From contig JAFQIG010000056.1 in the NCBI GenBank assembly GCA_017397655.1, forward strand, positions 6,306-70,305: 64,000 nucleotides of DNA, read 5' to 3'. This document shows, one piece after another, positions 1 through 9,077 of this stretch; the stretch's first letter is position 1; every line of letters begins with the position of its first letter. A program made the position numbers and the translations under genes. Below the pieces are notes generated by a model, which did no database searches, was not told where the DNA came from, and was given only the letters and a program-made list of their open reading frames with translations. This DNA is from Clostridia bacterium (lineage in GTDB: Bacteria > Bacillota > Clostridia > Oscillospirales > Acutalibacteraceae).

Positions 1-2016
1 AGCATCGTAATAGTTCTGATCGGGTGTTGTAACAAGACGCTCATCAACGGGAAGCGGCTCCAGAAGCTGTGCCGGCTCGTTCCACTCCGCCTGCTCGGTA
101 TCCCATACAAGATCCTTGCGCTTTGAGTTGTAAAGCGGATAATTGATAAGGTCAAGCGGCAACTGCTGAAGATGCTCGATACCTGCTTCTATATCGCTTA
201 CACGACCTGTGAATACATAGTGAATAAAGTTAAACAGCGGATGGCGCTCGATTCTTTCATACTGCCAATGATCCTCAAGTCCGCAAAGATAAAGCGAACG
301 AAGTGCAGGATCATTCTCAAGACGAAGCAGAGTAACCGTAGAGAGGAATCCGAGATTATCGTCAATGTGGCAAAGATGGGCATTTCTGATCTTGTGCTGA
401 ACGACATTGAGTGCAAAGTGATGCTTTTTAATCAGTTCAAGATACAGATCGTTATACTTTTCTTCGCCCGATACATAATAGGCACTCTTGAGATAAGAAA
501 GAAGCTCAAGCGAGTTAATGCCTCTTTCGTCAATCCATTTGTCACAGTTGTTAAGAAGAACGGGATCCCACAACGCCCATGTTGTAGGCTTGTTATCATA
601 GTCGATGAGGCGGTAGTTGTTGTTAATAATGTGGTCAGTCATACCGCAAAGTGCTTTTTTAATAAGCTCTTTTTCCTGCTCATCCGCACAGATATCGTAA
701 TAAAGCGTAAGCGCAAAGAAATGACCTGTGATCTCGTCGCTGGAGGTCTCACCCTTCCATTCAAGGTCAGGCTCCGACGCTGTACGCCACTCTACATGGC
801 CGTTGCCGTAGCCGGGTTCACCCTTGTAACGGATGGCTCTTGCCGTAAATCCGGGAATACCCGAAACCTCACACAGATACAAAAGCGCCTTAAGACTCTT
901 GCGTGCTTTTTCAAGGGCAACCTCATCACCCGTTGCACCGTAGCGAAGAGCCTCTGCAGCAACATACCACGATGTCCAGAGTCCGTCATTATCGGAAATC
1001 TCGGGATAGCCCGATTCAATCGTAAAACCTTTGAGTACACGGCATCCTACGTGTCCGTGACGTGTATGATACTTTTCAATAAGCTTTTCGTAATACTCGG
1101 CTTTTTCGGTAAAGGTCATAGAGGTTGTAGTGATACGCGAGATACCCTTTTCGGTTGCAACAAATATGACAGAACCGTCATCCGAAACCGTGATGTCCTT
1201 GATAACCGTATCGGGAACCCAGCGGCAAGCCGGAAGATATTTGAGTGCGCCGTTTTTCTGACAGATAAGTCCGACATCGGAGGCGAAGTAACGTCCGCCC
1301 TGTTTGTCCGTAACAATCTTGTATACCGCATTTTTGGGCAATGTTGTGATTTTGTCACTCGTAAGCCAAAGATTCATATTGTCGTGAATCGCAAGACCAT
1401 CCGAAAAGCCTACCCAGAGATGTCCGACCGTGTCAAATGAAAGACAGGTTACGGGACTGTCGGGAAGTGCCGTAATACCGGGAAGAATCGACTTCCACTC
1501 ACGTCTTTTACCTACAAGAGAATGAATGCCTGTCTCGTTGGAAACATAGACCAATTCATCATTAGCGGCTACGTGCTGACCGTTTCCGCCCTCGTAGCGC
1601 TTTTTGAGCATAACCGAAGCATCGGAAAGTGCGAGCTGATAGAAAACCGAGCCTGCAAGAACATAAACGGAATCGGATGTTTCCGCTATCTCACATACAG
1701 GCTGCTCGGCCTCAAAGAAAAGTCTGATGCTGTCTCCGTTTACAAAATAGATCTTGTTTCCCGAACAGACAGCAACATTGCCGTCTGCAAGAAGCTTCAT
1801 AAACCGGACGCCGTCTGAAAAAGTCTTTCCCCCGAATGCGACAAAAGTGTCATTTTCAAGAACTGAAAGACCCTTTTCGGTGCCGGCAAAAAGTCTGCCG
1901 CAAGAATCAAGAACTACCGAGCAAACATTATCGACAGGAAGGCCTTGTGCCGTTGTAAAAAAAGTACGTACTCTCTGCGGAAAGCTGCCGCACATAAAAA
2001 CATTTTTATTATTCAT
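1..2016 (-). CDS. Hypothetical protein with N-terminal beta-propeller-like repeats and a C-terminal helical (glycosidase-like) region; 3' end runs off the window
   Basis: Absent from the ORF track because it has no stop in the window. My reverse-complement translation from the ATG at 2016 (MNNKNVFMCGSFPQRV...) stays open for 672 codons to position 1. The listed + ORF 172..1440 is its antisense shadow. Confidence 0.6.
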   Translation of the reverse strand, partial: MNNKNVFMCGSFPQRVRTFFTTAQGLPVDNVCSVVLDSCGRLFAGTEKGLSVLENDTFVAFGGKTFSDGVRFMKLLADGNVAVCSGNKIYFVNGDSIRLFFEAEQPVCEIAETSDSVYVLAGSVFYQLALSDASVMLKKRYEGGNGQHVAANDELVYVSNETGIHSLVGKRREWKSILPGITALPDSPVTCLSFDTVGHLWVGFSDGLAIHDNMNLWLTSDKITTLPKNAVYKIVTDKQGGRYFASDVGLICQKNGALKYLPACRWVPDTVIKDITVSDDGSVIFVATEKGISRITTTSMTFTEKAEYYEKLIEKYHTRHGHVGCRVLKGFTIESGYPEISDNDGLWTSWYVAAEALRYGATGDEVALEKARKSLKALLYLCEVSGIPGFTARAIRYKGEPGYGNGHVEWRTASEPDLEWKGETSSDEITGHFFALTLYYDICADEQEKELIKKALCGMTDHIINNNYRLIDYDNKPTTWALWDPVLLNNCDKWIDERGINSLELLSYLKSAYYVSGEEKYNDLYLELIKKHHFALNVVQHKIRNAHLCHIDDNLGFLSTVTLLRLENDPALRSLYLCGLEDHWQYERIERHPLFNFIHYVFTGRVSDIEAGIEHLQQLPLDLINYPLYNSKRKDLVWDTEQAEWNEPAQLLEPLPVDERLVTTPDQNYYDA

Positions 2017-2140
2017 TCAAAAAACTGCCTTTCTTCCACCGATTAAACAATTAAATAAATTATAATATGAAATGGATGCAATTGCAAGAAAAAAAGCAAA
2101 TATTATCATATCTTAACAAAATTGTAATCTTTCAGACCGT

Positions 2141-2194
2141 CAAAAATAAAAAAGATTCTTCTGCTTCGTACTGTCATGCACAAAGCGAAGAACC
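2141..2194 (-). terminator. Putative intrinsic terminator after the acyl-CoA synthetase gene
   Basis: Minus strand reads GGTTCTTCGCTT...GAAGCAGAAGAATC (imperfect hairpin) followed by TTTTTTATTTTT. Confidence 0.5.
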
Positions 2195-2211
2195 TTTTGT
2201 TTTTGTATTTA

Positions 2212-3915
2212 TCAGTGCTTCTGATTCGCGTAATACTTATCGTAGTCGCGCTGACGGATTTCCACTCTGCGGATCTTGTTGCTGATCGTCTTGGGAAGCG
2301 AGTCAACGTACTCGATCTTTCTGGGATACTTATACGGAGCCGTGTTTACCTTGACATAAGTCTGAAGCTCTTTTGTAAGCTCATCGGAAGGCTCGTAACC
2401 GTCACGAAGAATGATCGTTGCCTTTACGATTGTGCCTCTTGTCTCATCGGGATAAGCCGTGATTGCACACTCGTAAACTGCAGGATGCTTGACAAGAACA
2501 CTCTCTACCTCAAACGGACCGATTCTGTAGCCCGATGATTTGATAACATCGTCATTTCTGCCTACATACTTGACTCTGCCGTGCTCGTCCATATAAGCAG
2601 TATCGCCCGTGTGATAGAATCCGTCGTGGAATGCCTCTGCATTCTCATCAGGATTGTTATGATACTCGCAAAGCGTTCCTCTGGGACGCTCTTTCTTTGA
2701 CGGATATCTGATACAGATTTCGCCTGTTTCACCGGGAGCACATTCCTCATTGTCAGCGTTAAGGAGTCTGACATCGTATCCGGGAGTGGAGATACCGATT
2801 GTACCGGGAATAGGCTTCATAAACGGCGCTATCGTGCTTATACAAAGAGTTGTCTCTGTCTGTCCGAAGCCCTCGTATATCTCAAGACCCGTATATGCTT
2901 TCCAGTCGTCAAAGACCTTGGGGTTGAGTGCCTCGCCTGCGGTACAGCAATGAGTCAAAGAAGAAAGATCATATTTTGAAAGATCGTTCTGAAGTAACAT
3001 TCTGTACATTGTAGGAGGTACGCAGAAGGTTGTGACTTTATATTTTTCAAGCTTTGACAGTATGTCCGCACCGTCAAATTTATCAAAATCGTAAATAAGA
3101 ACGGCAGATTCACCGAACCACTGACCGTACATTTTTCCCCAAAGTGACTTGAGCCAGCCTGTATCGGAAATTGTGAAATGAAGTCCGCCGTCAATGACAC
3201 GGTGCCAGAAAACGCCTGTCATTATGTGTCCGAGCGGATATGTAAAGTCATGAATAACCATCTTGGGATAGCCTGTTGTTCCCGATGAGAACGACATCAG
3301 CATCGTATCGGTAGACATAACCGCATCCTTACCTGTGGGACGTGTCCACTCGTCGCTTGCGTTTTCAAGACCTTCTTCAAAGTCGAGCCAGCCGTCAACC
3401 TTTTTATGCTTTGTAACGAATTTGCAGGTTACTGTCTCGTACTGACCCTCACCGAGATCAAAATTATCGGTACAGGCACCGTCAGCCGTTACAACTACAC
3501 CCTTGATCTTGCCTGCGTTACAACGGTACACATAGTCCTTTTCCGTAAGCATATCAGTTGCCTGAACTGCTATACCGCCGATCTTGTGCAGACCCATCAT
3601 ACAGAACCAGAAAAGATAGCTTCTTTTAAGTACCAGAAGCACGGGATCACCTTTACCGATTCCGTTCTGCGTAAAGTAGTTTGCAGCCTTGTTGGAATAA
3701 AGCATTACATCACGGAATGTGAATCTCTTTTCTTCACCGGTTGACGAAACCCAAAGCATTGCAAGCTTATCGGGTTTTTCCGTACCGAGAACATCGACAA
3801 CGTCATAAGCAAAGTTAAAATCCTTGTTCCAGCTTATTTTAAAATTCTCATTTACGTCTTCATATGATGTAAAGCTGTCTCTGTCCCTGCCGATAAATCT
3901 TTCGTATATTGCCAT
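2212..3915 (-). CDS. AMP-forming acyl-CoA synthetase (medium-chain/short branched-chain type)
   Basis: 567 aa. AMP-binding signature SSGTTGYPKMV; YHTGDTAYMDEHGRVKYVGRNDDVIKSSGYRIGPFEVES adenylate-forming C-terminal motifs. Confidence 0.85.
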   Translation of the reverse strand: MAIYERFIGRDRDSFTSYEDVNENFKISWNKDFNFAYDVVDVLGTEKPDKLAMLWVSSTGEEKRFTFRDVMLYSNKAANYFTQNGIGKGDPVLLVLKRSYLFWFCMMGLHKIGGIAVQATDMLTEKDYVYRCNAGKIKGVVVTADGACTDNFDLGEGQYETVTCKFVTKHKKVDGWLDFEEGLENASDEWTRPTGKDAVMSTDTMLMSFSSGTTGYPKMVIHDFTYPLGHIMTGVFWHRVIDGGLHFTISDTGWLKSLWGKMYGQWFGESAVLIYDFDKFDGADILSKLEKYKVTTFCVPPTMYRMLLQNDLSKYDLSSLTHCCTAGEALNPKVFDDWKAYTGLEIYEGFGQTETTLCISTIAPFMKPIPGTIGISTPGYDVRLLNADNEECAPGETGEICIRYPSKKERPRGTLCEYHNNPDENAEAFHDGFYHTGDTAYMDEHGRVKYVGRNDDVIKSSGYRIGPFEVESVLVKHPAVYECAITAYPDETRGTIVKATIILRDGYEPSDELTKELQTYVKVNTAPYKYPRKIEYVDSLPKTISNKIRRVEIRQRDYDKYYANQKH

Positions 3916-3927
3916 AAATCGCTCTCC

Positions 3928-4479
3928 TTACTTCATTACAACAGCTATAAACTGTGTAAGCTCATCCTCGACAGTCTGCACTGTGTGAGGTATTCCCGAA
4001 TCAAAATAAATACTGTCACCCTCTTCAAGCTCGTAAGAAATAGAGCCGATGTAGAATGTCATTTTGCCGGAAAGCACATAGTTGAACTCCTGTCCCTCGT
4101 GTGCGTGGAAGGTAGGAACTGTATCTGTTTTTTCTACGGTAACAAGAAACGGCTCTGCCTTCTTGTCCTTGAATGTATAAGCAAGGTTGCTGTAATCGTA
4201 TGCTTCGTTGCGCTTAACGGAAAAACCTCTGCCCTTTTTGACAACTGCACAGGTAGAAAGCTTTGCGGATTCTCCTCGCATAATTTCAAGAACATCAACA
4301 CCTAAAATGGAGGCACAGTTGTACATTACGCTGAACGAAAAATCCTTTGTTCCGTTTTCATACTGAACATATTCTTCTTCGCTGATACCGAGCTTTTCTG
4401 CCATCTCGGTAATAGTGTATTCACAGATATTGCGAAGTCCTGCAAGTCTCTGGCCGATCTCTTTAAGTTGATCTAACAT
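3928..4479 (-). CDS. XRE-family HTH plus cupin-domain transcriptional regulator
   Basis: 183 aa. N-terminal HTH (ITEMAEKLGISEEEYVQYENG); C-terminal cupin-like HAHEGQEFNYVLSGKMTFY...GDSIYFDSGIPH. Confidence 0.8.
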   Translation of the reverse strand: MLDQLKEIGQRLAGLRNICEYTITEMAEKLGISEEEYVQYENGTKDFSFSVMYNCASILGVDVLEIMRGESAKLSTCAVVKKGRGFSVKRNEAYDYSNLAYTFKDKKAEPFLVTVEKTDTVPTFHAHEGQEFNYVLSGKMTFYIGSISYELEEGDSIYFDSGIPHTVQTVEDELTQFIAVVMK

Positions 4480-4497
4480 AGCGATCTCCTTTCAGCA

Positions 4498-5034
4498 TTA
4501 AAAATTGTAACCGAGTTCGATTGCCTTTTCGTTGATTTCGATAAGATTTTTACGCTTTGCGGGAACAAGCTTTTCCATAACCTTTGAAACATTTTCATAA
4601 GGCATAAGGTCGGTATTCTTAAGAACGTTTCCGAGAAGAATCATATTTGCGGAACCCGAAAGCTTTTCATCGGAAGCGATCTGAGTTGCGGGTATGTAAT
4701 AAACGTCAACGTCATCTCTCTCTACCTTGCGTTCGATAAGCGAAGAGTCAATAAAGATCTTTCCGCCGGGAACTACGGCATCCTCGAACTTGTCAAGTGA
4801 CGGAAGATTCATTGCGATAAGGATGTCGGGATTCATAACGATGGGAGATCCGATAGGATCATCGCTGACGATAACGCTGCAGTTTGATGTACCGCCACGT
4901 GCCTCGGGACCGTATGACGGAAGCCAGCTGACCTCACGCTCTTCAAAAAGTCCGTTGTATGCGATAAATTTTCCTGTAAATAATACACCCTGACCGCCGA
5001 AGCCTGCGATCAAAACCTGTTTTGAAAAGCTCAT
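4498..5034 (-). CDS. 2-oxoacid:ferredoxin oxidoreductase, gamma subunit
   Basis: 178 aa, QVLIAGFGGQGVLFTGK motif. 4-nt overlap with the beta subunit gene. Confidence 0.85.
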   Translation of the reverse strand: MSFSKQVLIAGFGGQGVLFTGKFIAYNGLFEEREVSWLPSYGPEARGGTSNCSVIVSDDPIGSPIVMNPDILIAMNLPSLDKFEDAVVPGGKIFIDSSLIERKVERDDVDVYYIPATQIASDEKLSGSANMILLGNVLKNTDLMPYENVSKVMEKLVPAKRKNLIEINEKAIELGYNF

Positions 5035-5795
5035 TTTGCTGCCTCCTCGCCTGCGTATTTATCCTTGTATACTCCGAGAGGATAGTAGGGAATCATATTT
5101 TCACCGAGCCACTCGAGTGCCTTTGCAGGAGGAAGACCCCAGTTCGTCGGACAAGTGGAAAGAACCTCTACAAGCGAGAATCCTTTGCCCTCTACCTGAT
5201 TCTTGAAAGCTTTATAAATAGCCTTTTTTGCCTTGTTGATATTGGGAACGCTGTTTACGGCGACTCTTTCAAGGTATGTTGCACCGTCAACGTTTGACAG
5301 AAGCTCACAGACCTTTACGGGAAGACCGACCTTTTCGGTATCTCTGCCGTAGGGGGATGTCTGTGTGACCATTCCCGGAAGAGATGTCGGAGCCATCTGA
5401 CCGCCTGTCATACCGTAGATTGCATTGTTTACGAAAATAACGGTAATGTTTTCGCCTCTTGCTGCTGCGTGAACCGTCTCTGCGGTACCGATAGCCGCAA
5501 GGTCACCGTCGCCCTGATATGTGAATACGATGTTGTTGGGATCGGAACGCTTGATTCCCGTTGCAACGGCAGGTGCTCTTCCGTGAGCTGCCTGTGCCAT
5601 ATCAACATCAAAGAAATTATATGCCATAACGGAACATCCTACAGGTGCTACACCTATTGTTGTTCCCTGAATTCCAAGCTCGTCAATAGCTTCTGCGACA
5701 AGACGTGTGATTATTCCGTGAGTACATCCGGGGCAGAATGAAAGCTCTGCATTCGTGAGAGAATCGGGTTTCTTGAATACTACCATTTTCATCAA
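5031..5795 (-). CDS. 2-oxoacid:ferredoxin oxidoreductase, beta (TPP-binding) subunit
   Basis: 254 aa. FCPGCTHG, GDGD...A.G TPP-binding region. Overlaps the alpha stop. Confidence 0.9.
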   Translation of the reverse strand: MMKMVVFKKPDSLTNAELSFCPGCTHGIITRLVAEAIDELGIQGTTIGVAPVGCSVMAYNFFDVDMAQAAHGRAPAVATGIKRSDPNNIVFTYQGDGDLAAIGTAETVHAAARGENITVIFVNNAIYGMTGGQMAPTSLPGMVTQTSPYGRDTEKVGLPVKVCELLSNVDGATYLERVAVNSVPNINKAKKAIYKAFKNQVEGKGFSLVEVLSTCPTNWGLPPAKALEWLGENMIPYYPLGVYKDKYAGEEAAK

Positions 5796-6853
5796 CCTCC
5801 AATTTTAACTGCTTCTTCTACTGCGTTCATAACATCCTGCGGTGTGGGAATCATACCGCCTACACGGTTACAAAGCAGTACGGGCTTCTTGCAACGGATC
5901 GAAAGCTCAATGTCATCAATCATCTGACCCATTGAAAGCTCTACGCTGACAAAAGCCTTGCACTTGTCTGCTGCTTTAAGAAGCGCATCCTTCGGGAACG
6001 GCCAGAGTGTGATGGGGCGGATAAGACCGACCTTGATGCCCTTCTTTCTTGCTTCGTTGATAACGTTTTTGGAAACACGTGAAGCAATACCGAAAGCTAC
6101 AACACAGTATTCTGCGTCGTCCATCATATATTCTTCATACATTACTTCGTTCTTTTCGATCTGAGCATATCTGTCATAACGTTCAAAGTTCGTCTGTTCA
6201 AGCTCTTCGGGCTTTAAGAAAAGAGAGTTGACGATGTTCGGCTTTCTCTGACGACCTGTTCCCGTAAGTGCCCAAGACTTGTCATACTGTGTAACCTCGC
6301 CCATATCAAGGCTGACAGGCTCCATCATCTGTCCGATGGTGCCGTCTGCAAGAAGCATGGACGTCATGCGGTACTTGTCGGCAAGATCAAAGCCCTTGAA
6401 TGTAAGGCTGACCATTTCCTGTACGGATGCAGGAGCTAAAACGATTCTGCGGAAGTCACCGTGACCCGATGCCTTTGTTGCCTGCCAATAGTCCGACTGT
6501 GACGGCTGAATACCGCCGAGTCCGGGGCCGCCTCTTTGTACATTGACTACAAGTGCGGGAAGATCGCATCCTGCAAGATATGAAAGTCCCTCGCTCTTGA
6601 GTGAGATTCCGGGGCTTGAGCTGGATGTCATAACTCTTTTGCCTGTTGCTGCAACACCGATAACCATGTTGATTGCAGCGATTTCGCTTTCTGCCTGAAG
6701 AAATACACCGTCAATTTTGGGCATACGCTTTGCCATATATGCGGCGATCTCTGTCTGAGGTGTAATGGGATATCCGAAGTAGTGACGGCAACCTGCCATG
6801 ATAGCTGCCTCTGCAATTGCTTCGTTTCCCTTCATCAATACTTTTTCGGACAT
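5792..6853 (-). CDS. 2-oxoacid:ferredoxin oxidoreductase, alpha subunit
   Basis: The track ORF begins at TTG 6877. An ATG at 6853 (MSEKVLMKGNEA...) sits 5 nt after AAGGAGGAG and downstream of the delta stop, so it is the preferred start. FGYPITPQTEI motif. Confidence 0.9.
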   Translation of the reverse strand: MSEKVLMKGNEAIAEAAIMAGCRHYFGYPITPQTEIAAYMAKRMPKIDGVFLQAESEIAAINMVIGVAATGKRVMTSSSSPGISLKSEGLSYLAGCDLPALVVNVQRGGPGLGGIQPSQSDYWQATKASGHGDFRRIVLAPASVQEMVSLTFKGFDLADKYRMTSMLLADGTIGQMMEPVSLDMGEVTQYDKSWALTGTGRQRKPNIVNSLFLKPEELEQTNFERYDRYAQIEKNEVMYEEYMMDDAEYCVVAFGIASRVSKNVINEARKKGIKVGLIRPITLWPFPKDALLKAADKCKAFVSVELSMGQMIDDIELSIRCKKPVLLCNRVGGMIPTPQDVMNAVEEAVKIGG

Positions 6854-6866
6854 TTCATTCTCCTCC

Positions 6867-7073
6867 TTATTTTTCAACGGTAATTACACAATCGGGACAC
6901 ATCTTTGCACACGATGCACAACCGATACAGGCTGCCTCATCCGTAAGCTCTGCAGGGTGATATCCCTTGACATTAATCTTGTCCTGTGAAAGTGCTACAA
7001 TCTTTTTGGGACAAGCGACTACACAAAGTCCGCATCCCTTACATCTGTCTGTTAAAAATGTAACCTTTGCCAT
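6867..7073 (-). CDS. 2-oxoacid:ferredoxin oxidoreductase, delta subunit (2x[4Fe-4S] ferredoxin)
   Basis: 68 aa with two CxxCxxCxxxCP motifs (CKGCGLCVVACP, CIGCASCAKMCP). Confidence 0.9.
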   Translation of the reverse strand: MAKVTFLTDRCKGCGLCVVACPKKIVALSQDKINVKGYHPAELTDEAACIGCASCAKMCPDCVITVEK

Positions 7074-7085
7074 ATCTGTTCCTCC

Positions 7086-7760
7086 TTATACAGTTGACCA
7101 TGTCTGATAAACATGAAGTTTTAACTTGAATAAATTTTCGATCTTTCCCGTGAGTGACGGTGCAAGATCCTCTTTGACGGTCGTATAACGAACATCAAGT
7201 CCCGTCAGTTCCGCTACTTCTTCAGCATACTTTTGCGATTCCAGAACATCCTCTGCCGTGGTCAGATGACCGAGATTTGAATTGTTGATGATTGCGGTAA
7301 ACGGTAATTTTGCCGCATATTCAATCTCACGAAGCACCTGAACAGTCTCCTGTGCGGTACCTGTCAGAGGTCTGAACTTATTGATAACAAAAAACATATC
7401 GTAGTCGTTCTCTTCAAGTATGTACGGAACATATCTGCCGAGTGCCACGGCACCTGCATCATCACCGCCGACGTCAATGACTGCCGAACGGCTCTTGTCC
7501 TGTACAACGGCATATGCCTCCGCCGGAAGTGCGGGAATGTCAAGATTTGTATTGGCAAACTGCGACGAAATGATGCGTATGCCCTCTTTTTCCAGAACAT
7601 CGCTGCTGTCCTTTGTTCTGAAATAAGGATTGACCATATCAAGGTCGGCTACCGTTACCTCTTTGCCGAAGCTTCTGAGATATAAAGCATAGTTGACGGC
7701 AATATTCGTCTTGCCGCTGCCGTAATGACCCGAAAACAGCGCAACTCTTTTAAAATCCAT
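7086..7760 (-). CDS. P-loop NTPase of the MinD/ParA/CooC-like type, function unknown
   Basis: Walker A GHYGSGKTN. The start was moved to the ATG at 7760 (MDFKRVALFSG) preceded by AGGTGA. The longer track ORF (to 7859) would read through the T-box terminator. Confidence 0.7.
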   Translation of the reverse strand: MDFKRVALFSGHYGSGKTNIAVNYALYLRSFGKEVTVADLDMVNPYFRTKDSSDVLEKEGIRIISSQFANTNLDIPALPAEAYAVVQDKSRSAVIDVGGDDAGAVALGRYVPYILEENDYDMFFVINKFRPLTGTAQETVQVLREIEYAAKLPFTAIINNSNLGHLTTAEDVLESQKYAEEVAELTGLDVRYTTVKEDLAPSLTGKIENLFKLKLHVYQTWSTV

Positions 7761-8044
7761 TTCATCACCTGCCCTACAAAAAAAATAAACGTCCCTGAGA
7801 AAACTCAGGGACGATAATAAACCGTGGTACCACCCTATTTGCCGCAAAAATGCGACCACTCTAAAGGCTCTATCAAGCCTCTGCCCTGATAACGGTGCAT
7901 GCCGTAGCCCCCTACTGCTGTTTCAGAAGCTCTGCTCGGGAATGATTAAGCTGAAAACCTATACACCGTTTCGCACCACACAACGGCTCTCTGAAGTAAT
8001 CGGTAAACGCCCGTTTCCGTCATAGCATTTAACTTTGTTGATTT
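7761..8044 (-). promoter_or_regulatory. T-box riboswitch leader (tRNA-sensing transcription attenuator)
   Basis: Minus strand shows K-turn-like UGC-UAU-GA...GA-GCA, an AGAGAG bulge, a distal loop GUGUGGUGCGA, the T-box motif AAAUAGGGUGGUACCACGG (7822-7840), then a terminator. AGGG of the T-box can pair with CCCU of the terminator 5' arm to form the antiterminator. Confidence 0.8.
7775..7813 (-). terminator. Intrinsic terminator of the T-box leader
   Basis: CGUCCCUGAG-UUUU-CUCAGGGACG (10 bp perfect stem) followed by UUUAUUUUUUUU. Confidence 0.8.
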
Positions 8045-8050
8045 TTGAAG

Positions 8051-8079
8051 ATTATACACCCTTAAAACCGATTTGTCAA
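8051..8079 (-). promoter_or_regulatory. Sigma-A type promoter of the T-box operon
   Basis: Minus strand TTGACA (8074-8079), 17 nt, TATAAT (8051-8056), with a TG at the extended -10 position. Confidence 0.7.
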
Positions 8080-8108
8080 GAAAAATTTTTAACAATCACA
8101 AAAAAGCT

Positions 8109-9077
8109 TTATCTCAGCGATTCGCCTGTTGCCTCGGGGTATCCTTCTTTAATAGTATGGTCATATTCTGCTTCTTCCTGTGTCATAAGGAAATAATATT
8201 CGTCAAAGCCGCCCACACCGTCTGCCCATGTAACGTCCACGTGGTATGTCGAGCCGTCCTCCAGCTTTACCATATTCCATTCATGATTCCCACCGCTTAC
8301 TGTTATATTCCAAAGACCTGCTCTGTGACAAAGATACTGATATGCCTGTGCATACGCCTGACAAAGACCTTTTCCCTTAAGTAAGATGCCGTTCATATAC
8401 GAGTACGAGAAATCATAATTAACTCTCAACAGATAATCCTTTTCGTCGTTATCGGTATATGTCGTCTTACGCGCAATTTCTCTTGCAAGGTATTCATACT
8501 TTTCTGCATTTGTACCGTCGGGCATACGTGCTATTATGCTGTCACAAACCAGATTGATTGCGTTCATTGTCATTTCCATCTGTCGGGGTGAAAAATACTG
8601 CCACATACGCCATAAATAACCGCAACGCACTTCACAACAAACAGCCTTATTCATCTCACAATCATATTCATAATATAAAGTCATATACATCCTCGTTTCC
8701 GGATAATCCATATGTATTGCCCTTGTCGCTTTCCAGAACTGATCTTCCGTAAAATCGCTCTTTCCGAAATCAAAGAAAGTGTCCTTGTATCCGACAAGAT
8801 TCCGAAGAACCTCATCATAGATTCTCTGACATGTCGTGTCAAGGCAGCTTCGCCAATAGTTCAGCTCCATATCCCTTGCAAAGCGACCGTATTCCTTTTT
8901 TGTGTATTCCTCGGCAGGCTCTTCGGTGTCGAGCGTGAGTTCAATCGGCTCTTGTTCAAAGCCCGATGTTACCACTTCTTCAAATGTCGGAATACGTATG
9001 TCCTTTTCGAAATATATGTTGAACGTACCCATAAATGTTGTGTAGAGCGACAGAATAAATGCTATTAATTTTCCCAT
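8109..9077 (-). CDS. Membrane-anchored transglutaminase-like (Cys-His-Asp) superfamily protein
   Basis: GKGLCQAYAQAY ... GGNHEWNMV ... HVDVTW triad-like spacing; N-terminal TM. The ATG at 9077 has a GAGG RBS, whereas the ATG at 9119 has none. Confidence 0.65.
   Translation of the reverse strand: MGKLIAFILSLYTTFMGTFNIYFEKDIRIPTFEEVVTSGFEQEPIELTLDTEEPAEEYTKKEYGRFARDMELNYWRSCLDTTCQRIYDEVLRNLVGYKDTFFDFGKSDFTEDQFWKATRAIHMDYPETRMYMTLYYEYDCEMNKAVCCEVRCGYLWRMWQYFSPRQMEMTMNAINLVCDSIIARMPDGTNAEKYEYLAREIARKTTYTDNDEKDYLLRVNYDFSYSYMNGILLKGKGLCQAYAQAYQYLCHRAGLWNITVSGGNHEWNMVKLEDGSTYHVDVTWADGVGGFDEYYFLMTQEEAEYDHTIKEGYPEATGESLR

Follow-up and report, generated by a model that had tools for sequence, protein, structure and literature searches.

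The DNA analysed here is a 64,000-nt stretch of a Clostridia bacterium (from here on the window, by which we mean the whole stretch), which carries on its minus strand, at 2212-8079, an operon that pairs a 2-oxoacid:ferredoxin oxidoreductase (OFOR) with an AMP-forming acyl-CoA ligase behind a T-box leader. Its seven genes all point in the same direction and are separated by 0-20 nt or overlap slightly. They encode, in this order, a P-loop NTPase of the SIMIBI class (7086-7760), the OFOR subunits delta (6867-7073), alpha (5792-6877), beta (5031-5795) and gamma (4498-5034), a protein with an XRE-family helix-turn-helix (HTH) and a cupin domain (3928-4479) and a short/medium-chain acyl-CoA synthetase (2212-3915), which we predict to be a 2-methylbutyrate-CoA ligase. 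The products and their tight spacing had been named in an earlier reading made from the letters of the DNA alone (the sequence-only reading), and domain and NCBIfam matches bear them out.

Relatives of the operon were collected by searching one genome per species with a profile of the ligase. The 80 loci obtained (L-numbers) were annotated by tblastn and T-box searches, and their T-boxes were checked with Rfam. The closest relatives by ligase identity, L081 (92%) and L082-84 and L085 (72-73%), were retrieved as well; they have the same seven genes in differing genomic neighbourhoods, and in each the NTPase gene directly follows an Rfam T-box of 99-122 bits. The order NTPase-delta-alpha-beta-gamma-XRE-cupin-ligase is conserved across many Clostridia.

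In front of the genes lies a promoter of the sigma-A/sigma-70 type (8051-8079, minus strand) with TTGACA at 8079-8074, a 17-nt spacer and TATAAT at 8056-8051, which agrees with the consensus at 12 of 12 positions. The sequence-only reading had called it perfect, and it turned out to be the sole 12/12 match within 1900-8300, the runner-up reaching 10/12. Both hexamers are invariant in the orthologous leaders of L081, L082 and L085, in which the sequence around them is only about 64% identical.

The T-box leader (7790-8032, minus strand) is composed of Stem I, Stem II/IIA-B, Stem III and an antiterminator/terminator switch. A scan with Rfam RF00230, one of the checks proposed in the sequence-only reading, gave a significant match at 8032-7804 (minus strand) over the full model (1-219) with 115.4 bits, as compared to a gathering score of 93 (E = 8.4e-25); no other Rfam family matched anywhere in the 64 kb, which also contain no tRNA gene. 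The elements of the canonical leader claimed in that reading could all be located: the kink-turn (K-turn) GCUAUGACGGAA at 8026-8015 with its partner UUCC-C-GAGC at 7942-7934, the AGAGAG bulge at 7992-7987, the distal loop GUGUGGUGCGA at 7981-7971 and the T-box sequence AAAUAGGGUGGUACCACGG at 7822-7840 (minus strand), the last by direct reading and by the covariance model (CM) alignment. The bulge UGGU within the T-box sequence (7832-7829) is complementary to the 3′ end NCCA of a tRNA. From U7829 it therefore follows that the cognate tRNA should have the discriminator A73, which is compatible with tRNA-Ile.

The leader ends in an intrinsic terminator (7780-7813, minus strand), whose 10-bp stem (7813-7790; CGUCCCUGAG/CUCAGGGACG) has 7 GC pairs, encloses 4 nt and is followed by the U-run UUUAUUUUUU; the 10 bp and the U-run had already been noted from the letters. 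The 5′ arm of this terminator overlaps the 3′ strand of the antiterminator, the two having CGUCCCU in common, and the 3′ part of the leader folds with z = −4.1. Stem I gave z = +1.0 upon single-sequence minimum free energy folding. Because nearest-neighbour folding does not capture K-turn RNAs, Stem I was judged instead from the CM alignment and from covariation in an alignment of the Stem I of 31 related leaders (A3). In this alignment 84% of the cells are paired versus 64.5% in shuffles and 32-46% with slid partners, and there are 161 cells with double changes versus 59 in shuffles; the sequence-only reading had proposed to look for covariation in orthologous leaders, and among these related leaders it is present. 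In both helices that flank the K-turn 100% of the cells are paired, with compensatory changes, and in the distal helix 94.6%.

The leader resembles the ileS and ilv-leu T-boxes of Bacillus subtilis in its K-turn, specifier loop, AG bulge, distal loop, Stem II/III and UGGN bulge and in the competition of terminator and antiterminator, by which uncharged tRNA induces the supply of the cognate amino acid. It differs from them in what it precedes, here not an aminoacyl-tRNA synthetase, de novo ilv/leu genes or a transporter but a ferredoxin-dependent OFOR and an acyl-CoA ligase, by which a fermentation acid would be salvaged, and in being without the AGUA half of the S-turn. On its 5′ side the specifier loop consists only of ACG in the window leader and its orthologs (8015-7944, minus strand). 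The related leucine leader L054a and valine leader L057b have AGUA...GAA. The S-turn is a minor feature of T-boxes, and some other natural T-boxes are also without it.

For the 3′ side of the specifier loop the CM alignment gives ...CUUAAUC-A-UUCC-C-GAGC. The register was set by the rule that one base separates the three bases of the specifier from the 3′ strand of the helix next to the K-turn. This yields AUC (Ile) at 7946-7944 (minus strand), followed by A7943 and UUCC at 7942-7939, the same specifier and the same purine that had been favoured in the sequence-only reading. The register recurs in the three orthologous operons (L081, L082-84 and L085), all of which have AUC-A-UUCC-CGAGC. AUC would pair with the anticodon GAU, and the predicted specificity of the leader for tRNA-Ile is well supported by this comparison. 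The alternative specifier CUU (Leu), which had also been considered from the letters, was rejected because the triplet 5′ of AUC varies among the orthologs (UUA, CUU and CCU), in which AUC is invariant. UCA (Ser), obtained with a naive register of GAA plus 3 nt, was likewise rejected, as it would break the register that is conserved with respect to the lower helix and is also contradicted by the A73 implied by UGGU, bacterial tRNA-Ser carrying G73. In the isoleucine leaders of L061, L063, L071 (2389-2632), L074 and L028, C takes the place of the purine that usually follows the specifier.

Throughout the 31 leaders of A3 the specifier column contains ATC, CTC or GTA and nothing else; AUC, GUA and CUC are the codons in the ileS, valS and leuS leaders, respectively, of B. 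subtilis. AUC is found in about 28 leaders before homologous ligase modules, 27 of them preceding an XRE-cupin/ligase pair and one a lone ligase. GUA (Val) is the specifier of the paralogous modules L071b, L076 and L057b, and CUC (Leu) that of clusters headed by a LeuA-like gene (L004, L014, L020, L054a and L055b). The clearest case is L071 (2389-12282), in which T-box(Ile)-XRE-ligase is followed by T-box(Val)-XRE-ligase-NTPase-OFOR-IlvE; in L057 (5308-10249) a T-box(Ile)-ligase and a T-box(Val)-ligase are found together. Among the OFOR-linked ligases in a neighbour-joining tree, those of the four seven-gene isoleucine operons make up one clade, and the valine-linked ligases of L071 and L076 are sisters that stand next to the isoleucine-linked copy of L071. 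Such a tree would fit a duplication followed by a switch of the specifier.

The survey also reached a cultured organism, Solibaculum intestinale CLA-JM-H44, in which T-box(AUC)-XRE-cupin-ligase was found (L034, 9040-11632). With 82.8 bits (E = 1.9e-16) the T-box of this locus falls short of the Rfam gathering score; like those of L029 and L046, it has GGUAAC in place of GGUACC. A strict pattern for the T-box sequence was incomplete, missing the variants GAGUGG, GGUAUC and GGUAAC, which were recovered by relaxed patterns and by Rfam E-value searches. L043 also has a NiCo (nickel/cobalt) riboswitch (2272-2371, 81 bits), which precedes the T-box module by several kb and is unrelated to it.

The closest relative of the ligase among solved structures is Macs from Methanosarcina acetivorans (MacsMa; 3ETC_A), with 649 bits, E = 4.5e-194 and 52% identity over 544 residues. 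The next solved structures are far weaker, 4-hydroxybutyrate-CoA ligase and ACSM2A with about 350 bits and acetyl-CoA synthetases with 240 bits at most. According to the report on Macs, 2-methylbutyrate is the preferred substrate, with which both half-reactions are stated to be completed, the adenylates of many other acids not being converted to thioesters, and Macs is stated to have Gly where acetyl-CoA synthetase has the Trp that limits the chain length (PMC10455477). In the window ligase the corresponding segment, EGFGQTET, likewise has Gly at this position, and all Trp in the segment of the alternative pocket (W237, W254, W259 and W266) are kept. The other close characterised relative, MbcS from Staphylococcus aureus, is also AMP-forming and prefers 2-methylbutyrate, the purified enzyme being selective for 2-methylbutyrate and isobutyrate (PMC10026030). 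MbcS feeds lipid primers, and what is described of Macs in the report on it is its enzymology. The window ligase is T-box controlled, follows a gene for an XRE-cupin protein and shares its transcript with an OFOR.

The OFOR has the composition of other four-subunit enzymes, including those of the VOR type, with which it shares the delta/alpha/beta/gamma set, the thiamine pyrophosphate (TPP) motif, three [4Fe-4S] sites and the match to the VorB subfamily model. The delta subunit is a 2x[4Fe-4S] ferredoxin with two CxxCxxCxxxCP motifs. The alpha subunit, with POR_N and PFOR_II domains, belongs to the VorB subfamily (NCBIfam NF005507, 537 bits versus a cutoff of 399); its true start is likely ATG 6853, from which the protein would have 353 amino acids as in the orthologs. 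The beta subunit contains the Pfam domain TPP_enzyme_C with the TPP motif GDG...NN and four Cys for the proximal cluster, and the gamma subunit a POR domain (Pfam PF01558, 126 bits).

What the OFOR is linked to in the relatives bears on its function. In L005, L008, L009, L012-14, L019, L020 and L071 the NTPase-OFOR block adjoins a gene for the class IV branched-chain aminotransferase IlvE (NF009897, 467 bits versus a cutoff of 307). The sequence-only reading had pointed out that the operon lacks an aminotransferase, which is correct and extends to the whole 64 kb; the enzyme absent here thus has a genetic link to this OFOR in other genomes. The leucine clusters start with a CUC T-box, continue with the LeuA-like gene, an 830-amino-acid fusion protein and often IlvE, and end with the NTPase-OFOR-XRE-ligase block. 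The LeuA-like protein has HMGL-like and LeuA_dimer domains and stays below every isopropylmalate synthase cutoff; the fusion protein combines a xylose-isomerase-like TIM barrel with an AMP-binding acyl-CoA ligase. This arrangement was located at 1878-6099 in L004, 932-5058 in L014, 576-4833 in L020, 4756-8906 in L054 and 12460-16340 in L071; before the pair in L071 a T-box was not detected. Within the same salvage system the pair may serve as the arm for leucine, e.g. by activating isovalerate. No IlvE, LeuA-like or fusion-ligase gene is present elsewhere in the window.

With the T-box, the isoleucine specifier, the architecture of the operon and the comparative pattern established from the sequences, we put the probability at roughly 0.7 that the operon, governed by tRNA-Ile via its T-box, turns 2-methylbutyrate into the keto acid of isoleucine. 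This agrees with the sequence-only reading, in which a tRNA-sensed operon for the salvage of a branched acid towards isoleucine had been proposed. Branched-chain salvage is supported by four independent lines: the specifiers exclusively for branched-chain amino acids, the linkage to IlvE and LeuA-like genes, the likeness of the ligase to Macs and MbcS and the VorB-type alpha subunit.

The mechanism that we propose has a regulatory part, as read from sequence and comparison, and a metabolic part, the substrates and flux direction of which we infer. Transcription would start constitutively at the strong promoter. As long as charged tRNA-Ile prevails, the 10-bp terminator of the leader would form and transcription would stop before the first gene. 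Uncharged tRNA-Ile, on accumulating, would pair by its anticodon with AUC in Stem I and by its free ACCA end with the UGGU bulge, by which the antiterminator would be stabilised and the polymerase would read through into the operon. The Macs/MbcS-like ligase would then convert exogenous 2-methylbutyrate to 2-methylbutyryl-CoA, the VorB-type OFOR would reductively carboxylate 2-methylbutyryl-CoA with CO2 and reduced ferredoxin to 3-methyl-2-oxopentanoate, and a branched-chain aminotransferase (IlvE), encoded elsewhere in the genome, would form isoleucine. The assimilatory direction is proposed because an irreversible AMP-forming ligase stands beside the OFOR and because the operon would be induced by a shortage of charged tRNA-Ile.

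Several points weigh against this proposal. The substrate specificities of the ligase and the OFOR are not readable from sequence. The top NCBIfam model for the ligase is MbcS (NF047394), with a score of 421 bits that is under the equivalog cutoff of 850, which is why the ligase is filed here as Macs/MbcS-like rather than as MbcS, and MacsMa also adenylates acids from propionate to octanoate (PMC10455477). The orthologous OFOR-XRE-ligase block sits behind a leucine T-box in L004, L014 and L020 and is without any T-box in L008, L009, L012 and L013; because of these settings the OFOR block is not considered intrinsically specific for isoleucine, and the OFOR is probably promiscuous. In the specifier loop the AGUA of the S-turn is absent (a gap in the CM alignment), and on the 3′ side UAA stands in place of GAA. 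The genes for the NTPase and the XRE-cupin protein, two of the seven, are not accounted for by the proposed pathway, and neither in the operon nor in the 64 kb was an aminotransferase, a ferredoxin-reducing system or an acid transporter found.

The ligase could, alternatively, activate propionate, the OFOR acting as 2-oxobutyrate synthase and IlvBNCDE completing the synthesis of isoleucine. A route to isoleucine by which propionate is reductively carboxylated to 2-oxobutyrate has been described in anaerobes, an isoleucine T-box would fit it equally well, and propionate is adenylated by MacsMa-type ligases, according to the report on Macs cited above. We nevertheless regard this route as improbable: the valine (GUA) and leucine (CUC) specifiers of the related modules are inexplicable by propionate, the nearest characterised ligases favour branched C4/C5 acids, the alpha subunit falls into the VorB subfamily and the OFOR clusters with IlvE rather than with ilvBNCD genes.

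About as improbable is that 2-methylbutyryl-CoA mainly primes the synthesis of anteiso fatty acids as with MbcS of S. aureus, the isoleucine T-box being a proxy for primer shortage. MbcS, the top NCBIfam model for the ligase, has a proven role in primer supply (PMC10026030), and most of the XRE-ligase modules with an isoleucine T-box have no OFOR within 10 kb. The window ligase, however, is co-transcribed with a complete OFOR, which would be superfluous for primers, as would be the IlvE in the clusters of the relatives, and an oxidatively operating VOR would during isoleucine shortage use up the keto acid of isoleucine. The two uses are not exclusive, as 2-methylbutyryl-CoA could feed both, and the propionate route and the supply of lipid primers may be partial functions of the operon.

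That the operon is catabolic, with the OFOR oxidising branched-chain 2-oxoacids from amino acid fermentation to acyl-CoAs, would be in line with the family name "dehydrogenase subunit VorB" in NCBIfam and with VOR-type enzymes having first been characterised in the oxidative direction, but is very unlikely, as uncharged tRNA-Ile would then induce the breakdown of isoleucine precisely when it is scarce, as the linked enzyme is AMP-forming and thus activates acids, unlike an ADP-forming synthetase or the ATP-conserving Ptb/Buk pair, and as the relatives tie the block to biosynthetic LeuA-like and IlvE genes under leucine and valine T-boxes.

For the roles of the NTPase and the XRE-cupin protein in the isoleucine salvage operon we infer the following. 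The NTPase has 224 amino acids, no cysteine and the Walker A motif GHYGSGKT; DxGGDD is invariant in its family, which is very abundant and annotated only as "hypothetical". It has a weak match to Pfam CbiA (28 bits), and the confident AlphaFold2 (AF2) model (pLDDT 83) finds only remote fold matches, namely GTPases of the signal recognition particle (SRP) and HypB with TM values of 0.5-0.6. The NTPase gene is directly upstream of that for delta at every locus in which this position is covered, and the database cluster P0194 is an in-frame fusion of NTPase and delta. We know of no counterpart of this NTPase in characterised OFOR systems; the characterised VORs, to our knowledge, are archaeal and were assayed oxidatively. 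By gene order and fusion, the NTPase is predicted to be an obligatory partner of this type of OFOR. A function as Fe-S or Ni carrier similar to Mrp/NBP35, CooC or NifH was rejected because the protein has no cysteines and no close structural relative. It is conceivable, if doubtful, that the NTPase is a functional component of the carboxylating enzyme that couples nucleotide hydrolysis to the thermodynamically difficult reductive carboxylation or gates or assembles the complex; together with the specifier-swapped T-boxes (Ile, Val and Leu) before paralogous ligases the system would then be a dedicated, energised machine from acid to amino acid in Clostridia of gut and rumen. One possible form of coupling, by analogy, may be the activation of CO2 or bicarbonate as in dethiobiotin synthetase, a SIMIBI-class relative.

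The XRE-cupin protein matches the Pfam families HTH_3/HTH_19 and Cupin_2, its cupin motif being of the metal type. Its gene lies directly upstream of that for the ligase in 68 of the 80 loci, the other 12 being cut too near the ligase, without XRE-cupin (L057) or not resolved (L033 and L051). It is probably a regulator that responds to a ligand and is linked to the ligase. No conserved operator for it was found near the promoter, where conservation among the four orthologs is confined to the −35 and −10 hexamers, and a search for palindromes in the loci without T-box revealed nothing consistent. The XRE-cupin/ligase loci L021, L022 and L024, which are T-box-less, have a common promoter, GTTGACA-N17-(A)CCTATTAT, about 60-100 nt upstream of the XRE-cupin gene. 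That the cluster is universally under T-box control had to be rejected, as L008, L009, L012 and L013 show neither a T-box nor another Rfam family at E ≤ 0.01; the IlvE-NTPase-OFOR-XRE-ligase cluster must therefore be regulated otherwise in these lineages, perhaps via the XRE-cupin protein.

At its other end the operon is bounded by an intrinsic terminator after the ligase gene (about 2142-2198, minus strand), a long hairpin with U-run (−29 kcal/mol, z = −7.2), which none of 200 shuffles equalled in stability. From the promoter at 8079 to this terminator at about 2142 the operon is predicted to be one transcription unit. The upstream neighbours are sporulation genes of the ylbJ and yqfD types. 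Downstream, an open reading frame of at least 672 codons on the minus strand starts at 2016 and runs off the start of the window (1-2016), preceded by a 10/12 promoter-like site at 2059-2087 (minus strand). Having its own terminator, a next gene with a separate promoter-like site and sporulation genes upstream, the operon is therefore taken to be self-contained. A plus-strand reading frame at 172-1440 may be spurious because it overlaps the 1-2016 frame and has no NCBIfam match.

That rumen bacteria reductively carboxylate isobutyrate, isovalerate and 2-methylbutyrate to valine, leucine and isoleucine, respectively, is classical biochemistry. The same has been reported for methanogens, and genome papers state that the route is "probably" reductive carboxylation without naming the bacterial genes. 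The T-box mechanism, OFORs, ligases of the Macs/MbcS type and the physiology of branched acids are thus each already known; what is newly described is the wiring of a standard riboswitch to a CO2-fixing salvage. Full-text searches of the literature turned up no description of OFOR or acyl-CoA ligase genes under T-box control, although an earlier mention in other surveys or in regulon databases (e.g. RegPrecise) is possible; the in-silico survey of T-boxes by Wels (2008) does not mention OFOR or acyl-CoA ligase genes.

How far the family extends can be judged from searches for the ligase and the NTPase, each of which yielded at least 8,000 candidates, all scored proteins being above threshold; among these, most matches belong to uncultured Oscillospiraceae, Acutalibacteraceae and Ruminococcus from the guts of ruminants and humans. 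It has been known for decades that rumen and gut anaerobes need or use branched acids for valine, leucine and isoleucine, and the operon family offers a candidate for the regulated gene set, which bears on the cross-feeding of branched-chain acids and on feed supplementation. The tRNA specificity of the leader is an independent label, readable from the sequence, of the product of each module, be it isoleucine, valine or leucine. The ligase paralogs behind isoleucine and valine T-boxes in L071 and L057, which are natural paired cases, would be expected to differ in their acid preference, and the OFOR would be expected to carboxylate branched acyl-CoAs. The T-box regulon would thereby extend to a ferredoxin-dependent, CO2-fixing salvage reaction with a modular addressing scheme for isoleucine, valine and leucine and with two conserved uncharacterised components, the XRE-cupin protein and the NTPase, to which, as a partner of OFORs, the operon family draws attention.

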